This document shows, in pieces, positions 51,411 to 58,125 of a stretch of 64,000 nt of DNA; position 1 is the first letter of the stretch; each line of letters begins with the position of its first letter. Under the pieces are notes generated by a model that made no database searches, was not told the DNA's origin, and saw nothing but the letters and a program-made list of their open reading frames with translations. The position numbers were made by a program, and so were the translations under genes. Source of the DNA: Nannocystis bainbridge (GTDB taxonomy: Bacteria > Myxococcota_A > Polyangia > Nannocystales > Nannocystaceae); assembly GCF_028368995.1 (NCBI RefSeq), contig NZ_JAQNDL010000003.1, forward strand, positions 2,176,001 through 2,240,000, written 5' to 3'.

Positions 51411-52085
51411 TCAGAGGTTCCGCGGGTTCTTGTCGTCGACGTGTTGGCGGATCTCCCGCATCCACGCGTCGAAGTCCGCGTCGCCCAGCGTGTGCCCCGG
51501 CTGGACCCGCGCCCACTCGCGCCGCAGCGCCTCCTTCGCCACGCGCAGGCGCCCGGCCACCGTCTCGCGCGACTTCAGCTTCAGCACGTCCTGGATCTCC
51601 GGCTCGGTGAGGTCGTTCCAGTAACGCAGCTCGAGCACCGTCTGGGCGTTGATCGTCAGCCGGCGCAGACACTCGAACAGCATGCGCGCCTGCTCGTTGG
51701 CGAACACGAACGAGGACATCGCGGGCAGGCCGGTGTCGACGACGGCGTGGATCTCCGGGTCGAACGAATCGAAGTCGCGCCGCCGACGCTCCTGAAGGTG
51801 GCGACAGAGGACGCGATAGGCGATCGCAAACAGGTACCCGCGGAAGCTGCACTCGCCGCGGAAGTTGTCCCGCGACTTGACGCACTCGAGGAAGGTCCGG
51901 TTGGTCAGGTCCTGGTAGTGCGACTCGTCCTTGCTGAGGAAGAACCGCCGCAGCCGCGCGTAGTGGCGCTTCAGCAGGAGGTTGCCGGCGCGGGCATCAC
52001 CCGCGCACCAGCGGTCGAACAGGGGGCGGTCGTCGTCTGCCACGGGGGTTCGGGTCTCGGAGGTCGTCGTCGTCGTCGTGAGCAT
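51411..52085 (-). CDS. ECF sigma-70 factor (kinase-associated type)
   Basis: WCAGDARAG, region 2 QDLTNRTFL...SFRGYLFAIA, region 4 LELRYWNDLTEPEI. Confidence 0.88.
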   Translation of the reverse strand: MLTTTTTTSETRTPVADDDRPLFDRWCAGDARAGNLLLKRHYARLRRFFLSKDESHYQDLTNRTFLECVKSRDNFRGECSFRGYLFAIAYRVLCRHLQERRRRDFDSFDPEIHAVVDTGLPAMSSFVFANEQARMLFECLRRLTINAQTVLELRYWNDLTEPEIQDVLKLKSRETVAGRLRVAKEALRREWARVQPGHTLGDADFDAWMREIRQHVDDKNPRNL

Positions 52086-52183
52086 CGCGCAGGGCTCCTG
52101 GACGGCGCGAAGGCCGTCCAGAAGCGTGGTGCGCCGACCGGGGGCGGACGATCACCTCCGGTCGTGATTTTTTTCGCCGCGGT

Positions 52184-52543
52184 CTACACCCCGAAGGCGG
52201 CCCGCCGGACCGGGTCGGGCTTGGTCGCCTCCTTCTTGGTGCTGACCCGGATCGTCGCCGCGGTGCCGGTGGTCTCGGCGATCAGCACGAAGGTCGTCTC
52301 GGTCTCGCGGTCGGGCAGCAAGAACGACAGGTACTGGCTGGTGTTGGAGGTCGACCAGGTCGGCGACTCGAGCCGCAGGGTGTGCCCGGCCGGATGCTGC
52401 GCGTACACGTAGGTCCCGCAGGCGACCTCGAGCTGGTTCACCGCGCTGCCGAACGTCAGCGCGGCCTGGTCTTCGTTCAAGTCGGGGTTGCCGGGGGCAG
52501 TGAAGATCACGTTCAAGGTGGTCGGTGTCGTGTGCATGGGCAT
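52184..52543 (-). CDS. Small hypothetical protein between kinase and sigma factor (candidate caspase inhibitor/substrate)
   Basis: 119-aa ORF, RBS-like AAGGA near the start, GC-biased codons; role inferred from position. Confidence 0.6.
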   Translation of the reverse strand: MPMHTTPTTLNVIFTAPGNPDLNEDQAALTFGSAVNQLEVACGTYVYAQHPAGHTLRLESPTWSTSNTSQYLSFLLPDRETETTFVLIAETTGTAATIRVSTKKEATKPDPVRRAAFGV

Positions 52544-52656
52544 CCTTGCGCACGAGGCCCGTCGTCGATGGTTTTGACGGTGGCCTCGAGGGTTTTCGGT
52601 GGGAGATGGGCTCTGCGACTCGGTAGTGCCGACGGGCGAGCGATCCGGTCACGCGC

Positions 52657-55398: not shown

Positions 55399-55489
55399 CG
55401 TAGTGACCTGGACCCGGCCGATCGATCACTCCCAGGCGCCGAGAGGGAAAGCTCGCCGGTCGGCCGGCCGCTCATGGTACCATGGCCTC

Positions 55490-57244
55490 GTGCTGGCACT
55501 CCTGATCGGCGCCCCGACCCGGGGGCTCGAGGGCGTGGATGTCGACCTCGCCGACATGGCCGCCCTCGTGCGCGCTCGCGGGGGCGAGCCCGTCGTCCTG
55601 CCGCGCGCCACCTTGCCGGCGGTGCGCCAGGCCCTCGCCGACCTCCTCGGCCGCTGCGGCCGCGACGACGCCGTCCTCCTCTATCTCACCGGCCACGGCA
55701 GCGCGATCCTCAACACCGAACACGACAGCCGCGCCCTCACCCCTGCGCCCGAACGCCTGACCTACTTCGCCACCGTCGCCACCGACGGCGAAGACGCCTG
55801 TCTCTTCGACCTCGAGCTCTCGCTGTGGTGCGCCCGCCTGGCCGGCAAGACCCGCAACGTCACGGCGATCCTCGATTGTTGCCACTCGGGCACGCTCGTC
55901 CGCGGCGACCACGACAGCGTCGACGACACCGCCGCCCCCATGGCCGCCTTCCTCGCCTGGCGGGCCGCCCATCAAGACGAGATCGACGCCCTCGACGTCG
56001 AGGCTCACCCCGACGTCGTCCGCCTCGCGGCCGGCGGCATCAACGGCCGCGGCATCGCCCACGCGCACGGTAGCGCCCTCACCCGGGCCTTGCTCGCCGA
56101 GCTGCCCGCCGCCCGCGACGCCTCGTGGGTCGCCCTGTTCGCCGGCATCGAAATGCACCTAGCCCAGGCCGGCCTCCGGCAGCACCCGCGCCTGTCCGGC
56201 CCGGTCCGCCGCCGCCCCTTCGACCTCACCGAGGCCCTGCCGCCCGGCGCCGTCCCGGTGCGACGCGAGCACGGCCGGATCGTCCTCGCCGCCGGCCAGC
56301 AGCACGGCGTGCGCCGCGGCGACCTGTTCCTCCTCGACAGCGACCCGACCCGCGTGCACCACGTCGACGACCTCGCGCCGACCCATGCCGTGCTCCACCC
56401 GCGGGACATCGACATGTCCCTCGGGACATCCTCCCACGACCTGTCCTTCAGGACATCATCAACCGCCGCGCCCGACATGTCTCTCGGGCCAGCCTCCTTC
56501 GCCGTGCCGCTGCACCTCTACGGCCACGGCGGCATCGCCCTCGTGGGCCCACGCGAGCACACCGAGCCCCTGTCGCGCGCCCTCCGCTCCGCCGGTTGGT
56601 CCGTCGACCCGCGTGACCGCTCCGCCCCCCTCGCCACCCTCGAGTGCAGCGAGAGCGCGATCGTCGTCCATACCGACGAAGCTCGCCTCGTCGCCGACGA
56701 CCTCCCCGGCTGCTTCGCCATTCTTCAGCGGCTGGCCCGCAGCGCGCGCCTGCAGCACCTCGGCGCCGGCAGTCTCCGCTCGCTCGGGGTCCGGGCCAGC
56801 TGGGGCCGCGTCCGCGCCGGCGTGCTCGAGGCCCTCCCGCCGCGTGAAGCCGAGCTCGCCGACGACACCCCCGTGTTCGTGCGCCTCGAGAACACCGCCG
56901 CCGGTCGCCGCTTCGTCAGCGTGTTCTGGCTCGCCGACGACGGTCACGCCGCCCTGCTGTCACGCTCGCAGTCGATGGGCATCGAGCTCCCGCCGCGCAC
57001 CACCCACCTCCTCGGCGCTCGCCCCTTCGCTCGCGCCGCCCGCGGCGTCCTCCTGCCGCGTCGCCCGCTCGCCCCCGGGGAGCGCCGCCACGAGCGCCTC
57101 GTCATCGTCGCCAGCGAGCACCGCCAGGAGCTGTGGAGCTTCGAATCGTCTGACCCCGCTGGCACCTCGTACCGCACCGCACCCGGCGTCCACGTCGAGG
57201 TCTTCGCATTCACCGCCCGCGCCGCCGCAACGCCCCCGTCATGA
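55490..57244 (+). CDS. Caspase-family (peptidase C14) protease, PCaspase-like
   Basis: ALLIG, YLTGHG (catalytic His), ILDCCHSG (catalytic Cys), QHPRLSG, long C-terminal extension; GTG 55490. Confidence 0.88.
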   Translation: MLALLIGAPTRGLEGVDVDLADMAALVRARGGEPVVLPRATLPAVRQALADLLGRCGRDDAVLLYLTGHGSAILNTEHDSRALTPAPERLTYFATVATDGEDACLFDLELSLWCARLAGKTRNVTAILDCCHSGTLVRGDHDSVDDTAAPMAAFLAWRAAHQDEIDALDVEAHPDVVRLAAGGINGRGIAHAHGSALTRALLAELPAARDASWVALFAGIEMHLAQAGLRQHPRLSGPVRRRPFDLTEALPPGAVPVRREHGRIVLAAGQQHGVRRGDLFLLDSDPTRVHHVDDLAPTHAVLHPRDIDMSLGTSSHDLSFRTSSTAAPDMSLGPASFAVPLHLYGHGGIALVGPREHTEPLSRALRSAGWSVDPRDRSAPLATLECSESAIVVHTDEARLVADDLPGCFAILQRLARSARLQHLGAGSLRSLGVRASWGRVRAGVLEALPPREAELADDTPVFVRLENTAAGRRFVSVFWLADDGHAALLSRSQSMGIELPPRTTHLLGARPFARAARGVLLPRRPLAPGERRHERLVIVASEHRQELWSFESSDPAGTSYRTAPGVHVEVFAFTARAAATPPS

Positions 57245-58125
57245 GCCAGTCGATCCAACCCCTCCATCAATTCCTGCTCGATCGCTTCACCGCCTCCGAG
57301 CTGCGGCAGATCGTCACTTTTCATTACCCCGACGTCGGCCCGCGGCTGCCCGGCGAATCGATGTCCCACGCCGAGCTTTGCATGCAGCTGTGCACCGCGC
57401 TCGATCGCCTCGGTCTGATCGATGGTACCCTGTTCGCCCTGCTCGAGCGCGAGCGGCCGCGCTTCCGCCCCGAGATCGATCGGCTCCGCCGCCACTTCGA
57501 CGCCGCCGATAGCGGCCACGCAGCCTCCGTCTCCACCAGCGATCAACTGCTGGTCGCGTTCGTCGCCGCCAACCCGCTGCGGCTGCCCGCGCTGCGCCTC
57601 GCCGAAGAGGCCAAGGCCATCGAGGACAAGCTGCGCGGCACCAGCAACCGCTTCCGTTTCCAGTGGTCCTGGGGCGCCGGCCCCGACGACCTGCTCGACG
57701 CCGTCGTCGCCGCCTCGCCCGACGTGCTGCACTTCGCCGGCCACGGCGGCAAGAACGGCGCGCTGCTGCTTCAGACCGCCGACGGCGCCACGCACCCGGT
57801 CTTGCCCGAAGCCCTTGCCAGCCTCATCGCCGCCCGCCCGCGACGCCCGCGCCTCGTCGTCCTGAATTGCTGCTACAGCGCCATCCTCGCCAACGCCCTG
57901 CGTCCTCACGTCGACGCCGTGGTCGGCATGCGCGACGAGGTCGACGACGACGCGGCGCGCCAGTTCGCCGTCCAGCTCTACCGCGCGCTCGCCCAGCGCG
58001 ACAGCCTCACCACCGCCTTCGACACCGCCCGCGCCGCCCTGCAGGTCCACAACCTCCCCGCCGATCATCTCCCGCAGCTCTCGCTGCGCAACAGCGTCGA
58101 CCCGGCCCGCTACCGCCTGTTCTGA
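57241..58125 (+). CDS. CHAT protease with N-terminal death-like/EAD-type helical domain
   Basis: ATGA overlap with the caspase; ANPL..LRLAEE, VLHFAGHG, LVVLNCCYS, FAVQLYRALA. Confidence 0.9.
   Translation: MSQSIQPLHQFLLDRFTASELRQIVTFHYPDVGPRLPGESMSHAELCMQLCTALDRLGLIDGTLFALLERERPRFRPEIDRLRRHFDAADSGHAASVSTSDQLLVAFVAANPLRLPALRLAEEAKAIEDKLRGTSNRFRFQWSWGAGPDDLLDAVVAASPDVLHFAGHGGKNGALLLQTADGATHPVLPEALASLIAARPRRPRLVVLNCCYSAILANALRPHVDAVVGMRDEVDDDAARQFAVQLYRALAQRDSLTTAFDTARAALQVHNLPADHLPQLSLRNSVDPARYRLF

Follow-up and report, generated by a model that had tools for sequence, protein, structure and literature searches.

The closest described counterpart of the locus analysed here is the type III-B SAVED-CHAT/PCaspase system of Haliangium ochraceum (10.1101/2023.06.23.546230; structure 8TL0). 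According to the accessible text of that report by Steens et al., SAVED-CHAT cleaves PCaspase, which in turn cleaves PCc-sigma and PCi, the latter being predicted to adopt the CI-2 fold; the same text covers further protease-released sigma modules of type III CRISPR, namely Craspase with Csx29, Csx30 and CASP-sigma, and CalpL/CalpT/CalpS. In a 64,000-nucleotide stretch of DNA (the window) from a soil myxobacterium of the genus Nannocystis we find a five-gene locus which, with moderate confidence, we regard as a CRISPR-independent member of the PCaspase-type two-step protease cascades. Its docking domain in place of a nucleotide sensor suggests that other alarms can be connected to such a cascade. 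Like the Craspase and CalpL modules, the locus places a protease beside an ECF-type sigma factor and a small partner, and a proteolysis-driven transcription response is likewise plausible; unlike them, it employs other proteases and partners and adds a kinase and a second protease.

The five adjacent genes of the initial annotation are all present. On the reverse strand, in the order of transcription, lie the genes for a Hanks-type Ser/Thr kinase-TPR protein (52657..55398; 913 aa), a 119-aa orphan protein (52184..52543; 117 aa in its public form, which starts at residue 3) and an ECF-type sigma factor (51411..52085; 224 aa). The forward strand carries the genes for a PCaspase-like C14 protease (55490..57244; 584 aa) and a 294-aa CHAT protein (57241..58125). 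The caspase frame is open over 55184-57244(+) and longer than the public 584-aa form, which sets the GTG start at 55490 and hence the divergent intergenic region of 91 bp (55399..55489), read in the sequence from the first kinase ATG to the caspase GTG and presumed to be a promoter region shared by kinase and caspase. The proposed translational coupling of caspase and CHAT is visible in the sequence as an ATGA overlap of stop and start at 57241-57244. The H. ochraceum cascade comprises the same genes, likewise ordered, with the caspase divergent from a strand that carries sigma factor, small ORF and kinase. In contrast to it, the Nannocystis cluster has no SAVED domain, cas or cyclase genes nearby, and its CHAT protein, encoded directly downstream of the caspase, is just 294 aa long and begins with an EAD-type domain.

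The five-gene arrangement exceeds chance: three congeneric genomes share it in synteny, and it recurs, as sigma factor, kinase, caspase and EAD-CHAT in altered order, in three genomes of other genera of the Nannocystaceae (G342, G358 and G267). A neighbourhood survey supports the co-occurrence: the four-gene set recurs across genera, and sigma and kinase genes stand side by side at 12 of 79 surveyed caspase loci, all 12 from Myxococcota. A CHAT gene is also present at eight of these 12 (four EAD-CHAT, two SAVED-CHAT, two with other N-termini), and none was found within 10 kb at the remaining four; a CHAT protease close by may thus be dispensable to some of these caspases. Caspase and CHAT could also be parallel, independently regulated proteases, serving for instance myxobacterial development or protein turnover, and the resemblance to PCaspase loci could reflect shared ancestry of the parts only. 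PCaspase-like caspases are indeed widespread without CHAT, sigma factor or kinase nearby, 63 of the 79 surveyed loci, many from Actinomycetota, being devoid of a CHAT match. Moreover, the locus lies outside any recognisable defence island, flanked by ordinary metabolic and stress genes, which counts against the cascade reading. However, the ATGA coupling, the adjacency of caspase and CHAT kept across genera despite rearrangement, and the fact that the closest solved relative of this CHAT is the only CHAT protease for which processing of a PCaspase is known all speak against two unconnected proteases, and we regard that explanation as very improbable.

Both proteases are supported as specific relatives of the Haliangium SAVED-CHAT/PCaspase pair. 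The CHAT protease domain (aa 101-294; 57541..58125, forward strand) matches Pfam CHAT (2.1e-12) and, in a phmmer search, 8tl0_A as the sole significant PDB entry (6.4e-12). The top five Foldseek matches are likewise 8tl0 chains (E 1.4e-14 to 8.4e-14, rmsd 2.3-2.5), followed by caspase-4 at 3.5e-5. 8TL0 thus makes the Haliangium SAVED-CHAT initiator the nearest counterpart of this catalytic domain. The caspase, of executioner type (Pfam Peptidase_C14, 1.6e-7), consists of a protease domain with His69 and Cys131 and a C-terminal module of ~330 aa, which superimposes on the C-terminal parts of other bacterial caspase-family proteins with TM 0.70-0.71. The His/Cys dyads of both enzymes are intact, as initially described: His168 and Cys211 of CHAT are invariant across 23 sequences, and the caspase His (TGHG) and Cys (DCCHSG) in two alignments (A7 and A9). 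Related Haliangium-like clusters served as proxies for the H. ochraceum proteins; their SAVED-CHAT proteins match 8tl0 at 5.7e-140 and 1.5e-99. Via these proxies, the caspase, a single-copy protein in its genome, is colinear over its full length with the caspases of SAVED-CHAT clusters, and in two genomes with SAVED-CHAT/sigma/small ORF/kinase/caspase clusters its only match at E<=1e-3 is the cluster caspase. A tree of 82 rows places the Nannocystis clade as the sister group of the SAVED-CHAT-cluster caspases (SH-aLRT 92). Caspases with sigma and kinase neighbours group together in it, requiring 3 changes where shuffling gives 14.0 on average and none of 500 shuffles gets down to that number. 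Arg138, which follows the catalytic Cys and had been put forward as a candidate activation cut, is an Arg in 78 of 80 caspase family members, including members with no CHAT nearby; this conservation speaks against a specific CHAT cut site, and the residue seems to have a structural or catalytic role throughout the family.

The helical adaptor of about 85 aa ascribed to the CHAT protein is reproduced by an AlphaFold2 model (mean pLDDT 89.8), in which the N-terminal domain (aa 1-91; 57241..57513, forward strand) comprises five helices (6-15, 18-28, 43-56, 62-71 and 73-91), followed by a disordered linker (91-100). Within its own genome the domain has 15 matches, nine of them at E<=1e-3 with itself included; in its paralogues the fusion partners are CHAT, trypsin, FGE-sulfatase and SAVED domains, and each of five related genomes contains 8-19 copies. 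The family gives weak matches to Pfam EAD7 and EAD1, EAD7 being matched by 3 of 15 family members (best 1.2e-6), and a 76%-identical orthologue of the CHAT protein carries PF19960+PF12770. The window's own domain scores below every Pfam EAD model, the assignment running through relatives, and, as judged from these and from the model, it is a divergent member of the EAD7/EAD1 kind. This reading rests on features that match the EAD definition of Kaur et al. 2020 (PMC7159879): as far as the accessible text goes, EAD1-EAD11 (Kaur, Burroughs, Iyer, Aravind 2020, PMC7159879; 2021, PMC8195603) are small, all-helical, non-enzymatic terminal domains of caspase-like, trypsin and FGS effectors, present in several copies per genome and sometimes in adjacent genes. 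Unlike in the EAD conflict systems, no vWA-MoxR, iSTAND or GAP1 core component with a Nannocystis EAD was identified, the partners observed being membrane FGS proteins and a CBASS sensor with a SAVED domain. In the accessible text of PMC7159879 and PMC8195603 we found no tie of EADs to a PCaspase/sigma/kinase set, and the word SAVED occurs 0 times in that of PMC8195603. The notion of a "death-like/EAD sensor in place of SAVED" is therefore half right: an EAD-type helical domain replaces SAVED, but it is an adaptor, not a sensor.

As initially reported, no cas gene or SAVED domain lies nearby: neither SAVED nor Cmr2 is matched in the window. In the whole genome (90.5% complete) Cmr2 is likewise without a match, and SAVED occurs at two places, both outside the window. 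A CBASS of this genome (C2:1.39 Mb) combines the gene for a CD-NTase (PADLOC cyclase 7.7e-127) with those for a SAVED-EAD protein (SAVED 7.8e-43) and for a paralogue of the window's EAD-CHAT protein, to which it is 36-38% identical; the same trio is found in a second Nannocystis genome (94%, 74-90% and 88% identity, respectively). Like a CBASS with SAVED-fused effectors, the paralogue locus unites CD-NTase, SAVED domain and CHAT effector; unlike it, SAVED and CHAT are split over two EAD-bearing proteins. This "split SAVED-CHAT" suggests that the EAD stands in for the covalent link to a sensor. The window's cluster differs from CBASS in having neither cyclase nor SAVED. Since the SAVED protein of the CBASS bears the same kind of EAD, a trigger "instead of a cyclic nucleotide", as first proposed, is not established. 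The window's EAD-CHAT might even be a second output of the CBASS, whose CD-NTase product would oligomerise SAVED-EAD; the EAD would then recruit both EAD-CHAT paralogues, and the window copy would fire the caspase. This scenario corresponds to the presence of exactly one SMODS cyclase in the genome, to the adjacency of SAVED-EAD and the EAD-CHAT paralogue, to the common family of the EADs concerned and, from the accessible text of Kaur et al. 2020 (PMC7159879), to further EAD copies being often encoded elsewhere in a genome. Nevertheless, we consider it improbable: among the matches listed, the split trio occurs in one (G257) of the three other Nannocystis genomes with the five-gene cluster and not in G290 or G354, and SAVED-EAD matches the window's EAD weakly (E 0.075 in a single-sequence search, 26% identity).

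In the favoured two-step cascade, CHAT would be docked through contacts between its EAD and that of a sensor or scaffold whose gene lies elsewhere. Crowding on this scaffold might activate CHAT, as filament formation does SAVED-CHAT, and CHAT would then cleave and activate the caspase, a step we infer from homology and from adjacency with translational coupling. The caspase, probably a promiscuous Arg-directed protease, would cleave numerous proteins, perhaps also the kinase, the sigma factor and the 119-aa protein of its own locus, which might lead to growth arrest or death and/or to a transcription response that depends on the sigma factor. Phage, envelope damage or development would be conceivable physiological triggers. 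Candidates for docking would be found among the nine significant EAD copies of the genome, which include SAVED-EAD, EAD-trypsin and EAD-membrane-FGS proteins. The neighbourhood does not define the cognate partner, because the EAD profile found no second EAD within 20 kb in three distant four-gene clusters, and EAD identity is no predictor of pairing, given only 19% identity between the EADs of the adjoining CBASS pair. We tentatively assign the partner role to a 366-aa EAD-membrane-FGS protein (59790..60890, reverse strand), with an EAD at aa ~1-85 (EAD profile 2.6e-26; Pfam EAD7 0.057, below the cut-off), a subsequent hydrophobic segment predicted as a membrane helix, and an FGE-sulfatase (FGS) match (5.7e-15). 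Its gene is the second of a four-gene operon (61732 to 58265) converging on the CHAT gene; apart from the window, it adjoins the cluster in N. exedens only.

The sigma factor (Pfam Sigma70_r2 4.1e-6, Sigma70_ECF 6.1e-5; NCBIfam sigma70-ECF 59.7 bits versus a cut-off of 42.9) bears a conserved C-terminal extension and is 34-38% identical to the sigma factors of SAVED-CHAT and EAD-CHAT clusters. The kinase (Pfam Pkinase 1.3e-30, TPR_12 4.4e-11) displays motifs that we read as the Lys, HRD and DFG motifs usual in kinases. A hydrophobic 19-mer at about aa 336-354 (KD 2.06) is predicted as its single membrane helix, a comparable segment lies 146-170 aa past HRD in eight homologous kinases, and the TPR-containing part of ~550 aa would thus be located outside the cytoplasm. 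They resemble PC-sigma and PCk in domain type and gene position, but both belong to a large paralogous family and the sigma tree reveals no specific orthology: cluster-associated sigma factors are not united (4 changes versus a shuffled mean of 4.2), and that of the window falls with paralogues of its own genome, apart from those of Haliangium-like clusters. Sigma-kinase adjacency is far above chance and generic in this genome, whose 11 Mb hold 120 kinase-domain HSPs: for 20 of 32 sigma HSPs a kinase domain is no more than 4 kb away. An ordinary signalling pair might accordingly switch on the divergent caspase-CHAT operon: the outer TPR part would sense an extracytoplasmic signal, the kinase would phosphorylate the sigma factor, which would bind RNA polymerase and act upstream of the proteases instead of being their substrate, and the EAD would only tune or localise CHAT. 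Besides the paralogue adjacency, the conserved membrane helix and the sigma tree, the divergent gap of merely 91 bp agrees with this, as do ECF sigma-activating transmembrane Hanks kinases described in the accessible text of PMC13147305, PMC8999054 and PMC7826278. As in the PknS-EcfK pair (PMC13147305, accessible text), an ECF sigma factor stands beside a single-pass membrane Ser/Thr kinase, a type strongly expanded in the Nannocystis genome; unlike there, the pair accompanies a caspase-CHAT operon, and an orphan gene separates kinase and sigma factor. We nonetheless judge a purely regulatory role rather unlikely, as the Haliangium PCaspase cuts the sigma factor into defined products in vitro (accessible text of Steens et al., 10.1101/2023.06.23.546230), and the caspase retains sigma factor and kinase as neighbours even at loci with a different CHAT partner or none, as would be expected if these two are functionally linked to the caspase itself. 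Both models are compatible, and a feedback loop is possible.

The 119-aa protein is a positional analogue of PCi only, and the original equation with PCi is not supported. Against small proteins at the PCi position of Haliangium-like clusters, which stand in for PCi, hhalign gives a probability of 4.3%, and the AlphaFold2 model (pLDDT 72.1) is all-beta with eight strands and retrieves only Ig-like folds in Foldseek, not CI-2. The ORF has no match in Pfam, PADLOC or NCBIfam, and no anti-sigma homology was found. Seven homologues are present in 5.8 billion proteins, the three named ones being from Nannocystis, and eight matches at E<=1e-3 among 1.84 billion representatives; the protein is predicted to be a lineage-specific Ig-like beta-sandwich.

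All five open reading frames of the cluster are present as initially annotated, and the assignment of four of them to the ECF sigma, Ser/Thr kinase, C14 caspase and CHAT families is borne out by concordant Pfam, PADLOC and NCBIfam matches. As read from the open frames, the sigma factor (51411–52085), a 119-residue protein (52184–52543) and a 913-residue kinase with a TPR part (52657–55398) are encoded on the reverse strand, and the caspase (open frame 55184–57244) and a CHAT protein of 294 residues (57241–58125) on the forward strand. The public 584-residue form of the caspase starts at a GTG codon at position 55490, 91 bp from the first ATG of the divergent kinase gene (55398), and the caspase stop overlaps the CHAT start in the tetranucleotide ATGA. 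The cluster is of the PCaspase type, devoid of CRISPR and SAVED components, and carries an adaptor of the effector-associated domain (EAD) type on its CHAT protein; the initial annotation was right in this core. To our knowledge, the only PCaspase cascade characterised so far is switched on by a cyclic nucleotide made by CRISPR or CBASS and perceived via SAVED.

Both proteases are specifically related to the SAVED-CHAT/PCaspase system, as had been proposed, and both possess the expected intact His/Cys dyads, which are invariant in the respective alignments (His168 and Cys211 in the CHAT protein, His69 and Cys131 in the 584-residue numbering of the caspase). By sequence, the only significant PDB relative of the CHAT protein is the SAVED-CHAT structure (8tl0_A, 6.4e-12), and a fold search with its AlphaFold2 model (pLDDT 89.8) likewise retrieved the 8tl0 chains at the top (1.4e-14 to 8.4e-14, rmsd 2.3–2.5 Å), followed by caspase-4 at 3.5e-5. 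The CHAT domain is thus a dyad-bearing protease of the SAVED-CHAT kind and its neighbour a C14 protease of the PCaspase family as found in the cascade of Steens et al. The caspase is encoded in a single copy in its own genome. In G209 and G143, two Haliangium-like genomes which serve here as proxies for the H. ochraceum type strain, its sole match at E ≤ 1e-3 is the caspase of the SAVED-CHAT cluster, with which it aligns over the full length including the C-terminal modules. A tree of 82 caspases (from the 79 surveyed loci described below, the window and loci L039 and L042, none dropped; quick search without bootstraps) places the four Nannocystis caspases as sisters of two SAVED-CHAT-cluster caspases (SH-aLRT 92). 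The caspases located beside a sigma factor and a kinase are strongly clustered on this tree: 3 changes were counted, the mean after shuffling being 14.0, and none of 500 shuffles gave so few. As kin share labels, this documents clustering rather than independent events.

The gene arrangement conforms to this relationship. In the G209 and G143 loci, the SAVED-CHAT gene is followed by the genes of the sigma factor, a small protein and the kinase on the other strand and then by the divergent caspase gene; the window layout is the same except for the CHAT gene. The SAVED-CHAT proteins of G209 and G143 match 8tl0 at 5.7e-140 and 1.5e-99, the best values in the relatives being 5.7e-140, 2.3e-110 and 1.5e-99, and none identical to 8TL0 was found in the genus (3 genomes) or the family (138 genomes) around the Haliangium-like proxy. 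According to the accessible part of the report by Steens et al. (10.1101/2023.06.23.546230), cA3-bound SAVED-CHAT of H. ochraceum forms filaments and cleaves PCaspase, and PCaspase cleaves the sigma factor PCc-sigma and the small protein PCi, which is an inhibitor of PCaspase and CI-2-like by prediction; the same part states that no PCi homologues were found elsewhere and that the kinase PCk was not clonable.

The window CHAT protein is not fused to SAVED: Pfam and PADLOC detected no such domain in it, its N-terminus consisting instead of a five-helix domain, and Pfam SAVED matches are confined to two other places in the genome. The annotated lack of cas and SAVED genes near the cluster therefore holds, as none occurs among the 10 neighbouring open reading frames, which were also free of cyclase genes. 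Cmr2 had no match in the whole genome, and its one SMODS cyclase lies ca. 0.84 Mb from the cluster on the same contig. Accordingly, the cluster has no neighbouring source of cyclic oligonucleotides, be it a type III CRISPR Cas10 or a CD-NTase, and falls outside the definition of CBASS, which combines a CD-NTase with a nucleotide-sensing effector in one locus. Its flanks consist of ordinary genes (encoding a PhoU-like protein, Usp, an FAD monooxygenase and a DUF2807 protein), no defence island was seen around it, and its G+C content of 0.70–0.73 is typical of the native genome (11.05 Mb in 5 contigs, about 70% G+C).

In place of SAVED, AlphaFold2 predicts five helices for residues 6–91 of the CHAT protein (block pLDDT 78–95) and a disordered linker thereafter; the helices make up a small, apparently non-enzymatic, all-helical terminal domain. 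Searched with residues 1–100, the own genome yielded 15 matches, of which 9, the query among them, reached E ≤ 1e-3. They are located on a second EAD-CHAT protein, a trypsin-like protease, an FGE-sulfatase protein encoded in the window (59790–60890) and proteins of 518, 254, 271 and 222 residues of no known family; a match in an nSTAND1-TPR protein (6.3e-6), the one candidate for an EAD copy on a core component (VMAP, iSTAND, GAP1 or Ubl), lies within a coiled-coil-like stretch and may be spurious, and a weaker one concerns a SAVED protein (E 0.075). The domain is thus fused to CHAT (twice), trypsin, FGE-sulfatase and SAVED, with one adjacent pair in a CBASS locus, which corresponds to the occurrence of EADs in several copies per genome on varied effectors and sometimes in adjacent genes; a profile built for it finds 8–19 copies in each of 5 related genomes. 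Pfam EAD7 is matched by 3 of the 15 members of the alignment (best value 1.2e-6) and EAD1 by one (0.084), two of the three EAD7-matching members reaching 13.6–14.4 bits when scanned alone, below the cut-off of 32 bits. The window domain itself matches neither Pfam EAD7 nor EAD1, and a 76%-identical CHAT orthologue carries precomputed PF19960 (EAD7) and CHAT assignments. We accept the N-terminus as an EAD because its properties fit the definition of Kaur et al. (2020; PMC7159879) as laid out in the accessible text; EAD7 is also mentioned together with FGE-sulfatase (FGS) proteins in the part available of Kaur et al. (2021; PMC8195603). The proposal of an EAD sensor in place of SAVED is hence retained as to the domain (five helices, 9 genomic copies) but not as to its function, since domains of this kind are homotypic adaptors and not sensors. 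As to the partner of the window EAD, the EAD profile found no second copy within 20 kb at three distant clusters, and identity was discarded as a guide given that the adjacent EAD pair of the CBASS locus is only 19% identical; neither neighbourhood nor identity therefore points to it.

This CBASS locus, situated outside the window, which covers G000:C2:2176001-2240000, on the same contig (G000:C2:1389993-1393170, corresponding to 9491–12674 of locus L035), comprises three adjacent genes. They encode a CD-NTase (SMODS 3.4e-13, PADLOC cyclase 7.7e-127), a SAVED protein of 359 residues (SAVED 7.8e-43) ending in an EAD, and an EAD-CHAT paralogue of 299 residues which is 36–38% identical to the window CHAT protein. 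With a CD-NTase and a nucleotide-sensing effector the locus agrees with the definition of CBASS, and all three genes are conserved in another Nannocystis genome (L036) with identities of 94%, 74–90% and 88%. It represents a SAVED-CHAT effector divided over two proteins, each equipped with an EAD. In the literature searched we found no description of such a split SAVED-EAD/EAD-CHAT system or of an EAD-CHAT protein together with a PCaspase; the work of Steens et al. in its journal form, and its supplements, may list further variants, including CHAT proteins devoid of SAVED. The split CBASS provides the best available argument for an EAD taking the place of the covalent sensor-CHAT connection, and by analogy with the SAVED-CHAT filaments CHAT might be activated when EADs recruit or crowd it. 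The locus can be viewed as an experiment made by nature and suggests that a covalent sensor-protease fusion is replaceable by a death-domain-like adaptor, and the use of an adaptor instead of a fusion is the logic of initiator-caspase recruitment in animals. In principle, the window CHAT protein could also dock on the SAVED-EAD protein, so that the annotated triggering by protein clustering instead of a cyclic nucleotide is one possibility among others.

Three congeners (L032–L034) show synteny for the five genes with their flanks, which by itself reflects shared ancestry only. Three genomes from other genera of the same family (G342, G358 and G267) carry more weight, as sigma factor, kinase, caspase and EAD-CHAT genes are found together there in changed order and orientation. 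For a broader survey, a motif-seeded scan was made with one genome per species, and the best 79 of 163 caspase relatives were scored with our own profiles. Among these best 79 loci, sigma and kinase matches co-occur in 13 and stand side by side in 12, all of them in Myxococcota, while any CHAT match is present in 16; 8 of the 12 also contain CHAT, with an EAD in 4, SAVED in 2 and other N-termini in 2 cases. Many Actinomycetota loci of the same survey show none of the three partners. The claimed co-occurrence of sigma factor, kinase, caspase and CHAT is substantiated by its rearranged recurrence in other genera and by these 8 of 12 loci, and the survey leads us to regard caspase, sigma factor and membrane kinase as a stable core in Polyangia and CHAT as an input arm that varies. 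For three metagenomic caspase homologues, the length of the longest contig (14649, 10645 and 4455) is the same as for CHAT homologues, which suggests co-location in these cases, too. Additional N-termini are seen in CHAT proteins beside caspases of the PCaspase clade (L077 1374–2405, L137 11713–13257 and L093 3987–4952), namely a domain of ca. 150 residues of no known family in Plesiocystis, a region of ca. 330 residues in a Myxococcales MAG and a different helical region in a Nannocystaceae MAG. The diversity of CHAT N-termini suggests that the input module has often been exchanged, with the initiator bearing SAVED in some loci and an EAD-type adaptor or a further domain in others, on a conserved caspase-sigma-kinase core. 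PCaspase-like caspases with the same active-site motif are also common in Actinomycetota (Streptomyces, Saccharothrix, Lentzea, Actinoplanes and Micromonospora) and occur in Acidobacteriota, Planctomycetota and Chloroflexota (loci L075–L150), with no profile match to sigma factor, kinase or CHAT within 10 kb.

For the activation of the caspase, cleavage at Arg138, 7 positions after the catalytic cysteine, had been suggested. Of 80 caspase domains (79 surveyed loci and the window), including members with no CHAT nearby, 78 have Arg at this position and one each has Lys and Asp, and such family-wide conservation argues against a CHAT cut site specific for this system. Because of its invariance in the family, Arg138 is more likely a structural or active-site residue, as judged from the alignment. 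Alternatively, this region could be processed by the caspase itself. A potential Arg-directed specificity of PCaspase is indicated in the accessible part of a preprint by Rousset et al. The stretch just past Arg138 is variable and gapped in the alignment and may form a linker loop.

The relationship of sigma factor and kinase to those of the known cascade is less specific. Behind the kinase domain, whose translation contains what we take to be the usual catalytic motifs, a hydrophobic 19-mer follows directly, and a similar segment is found 146–170 residues after the HRD motif in 8 homologous kinases; the protein is accordingly predicted to be a single-pass receptor kinase with the TPR part outside the cytoplasm. 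Sigma factor and kinase are 30–34% identical to their counterparts in the Haliangium-like clusters and equally so to many paralogues in their own genome, where the sigma factor gives 32 paralogous HSPs, 20 of which have a Ser/Thr kinase domain at a distance of no more than 4 kb. Signalling pairs of sigma factor and membrane kinase are therefore massively expanded here. A sigma tree of 44 rows, with most deep branches unsupported, does not unite the cluster-associated sigma factors (4 changes compared to a shuffled mean of 4.2) and places that of the window nearest to own-genome paralogues. The link to PCc-sigma and PCk is consequently one at the family level only, which the presumed orthology exceeds. 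A serious rival, or complement, to CHAT-initiated activation is that the kinase activates the sigma factor, which then drives expression of the protease operon. It would be in line with the abundance of such pairs.

The 119-residue protein occupies the position of PCi, yet its equation with PCi could not be upheld. Its model (pLDDT 72.1, pTM 0.67) is an eight-stranded, apparently all-beta sandwich with generic Ig-like matches only in a fold search, rather than a CI-2-like fold, and hhalign gave a probability of 4.3% against the small proteins that hold this position in the Haliangium-like proxies, while the HMMs do not cross-match. These small proteins form a family of their own, whose profile matches short open reading frames of Nannocystis and relatives in loci with SAVED-CHAT, sigma and kinase genes (L061 11204–11737, 5e-10; L059 8408–8896, 2.5e-8; L060 5758–6435, 2e-4; L078 9485–9907, 2.5e-4) and not the 119-residue protein. 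Pfam, PADLOC and NCBIfam contain no match to it, and a Protein Atlas search produced no usable match or model. Seven homologues were found, the three named ones all from Nannocystis and four from metagenome records, and its family profile has 8 matches at E ≤ 1e-3 among 1.84 billion representatives, five of similar size and three as repeats inside long proteins. A complex prediction of caspase residues 36–340 with the sigma factor and the 119-residue protein (score 0.09, mark 0.32) was uninformative either way. As a weak hint of expression, a 1568-nt contig of a soil RNA library (metatranscriptome) spans the sigma and 119-residue protein genes (51052–52623) with ca. 96% identity, 53 other letters and 6 gaps, and a second contig of 425 nt covers 54957–55381; both come from a relative, which is a close one for the former, and DNA carry-over is possible.

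By homology and with the split CBASS as precedent, the cascade is proposed to proceed by EAD-mediated recruitment which activates CHAT; CHAT would then activate the caspase, as in the related system, and the active caspase would, again by homology, cause broad proteolysis and a sigma-linked response. A tentative candidate for the recruiting partner is encoded in a four-gene operon on the reverse strand (58265–61732) with overlapping stops and starts, which converges on the CHAT gene across a gap of 139 bp. Its products are an FGE-sulfatase protein of 281 residues with a hydrophobic N-terminus, a protein of 366 residues (59790–60890) composed of an EAD, a membrane helix and an FGE-sulfatase domain, a protein of 212 residues with a C-terminal membrane helix, and a predicted secreted protein of 295 residues whose N-terminus resembles a signal peptide and whose C-terminus is rich in Cys. 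Besides the window, N. exedens has the operon next to its cluster; in N. pusilla just a short FGE fragment matches, so that the operon is there in part only, and the RBIL2 genome lacks it. An improbable joint reading would make the system a counterpart of extrinsic (death-receptor) apoptosis, in which an external ligand clusters the membrane EAD-FGS protein, which recruits the EAD-CHAT initiator, and this fires the PCaspase executioner. It would demand, with the same small chance, that the EAD-FGS protein, encoded 1.7 kb from CHAT, spans the membrane once and exposes a lectin-fold FGS domain to the outside, its EAD being in the cytoplasm. Downstream targets or a brake would, no less doubtfully, be provided by the membrane kinase, the sigma pair and the 119-residue protein, and the EAD would be a plug by which one PCaspase cascade listens to several sensors of a genome-wide EAD network including the split CBASS, to which we likewise attach little probability. 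If this joint reading were true, the system might serve the social life or development of myxobacteria as much as phage defence. For specialists in bacterial immunity and cell death, the locus would, if EAD-mediated recruitment of CHAT is confirmed, offer a tractable bacterial model of proximity-induced caspase activation through adaptor domains and widen the range of signals feeding bacterial caspase cascades.

Elsewhere in the window, two giant open reading frames of 3095 and 2513 residues (19486–36304, forward strand) stand out by a lower G+C content of 0.62–0.68. The first 1500 residues of the second contain SpvB, TcdB middle N and C and FG-GAP matches and are Tc-toxin B/C-like, and those of the other have no Pfam match. 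An IS66-family transposase gene (37035–38264, reverse strand) and a DDE (DUF772/DDE_Tnp_1) transposase gene (41088–42479, forward strand) adjoin the Tc-like genes, which suggests an acquired island ending a few kb before the protease cluster.
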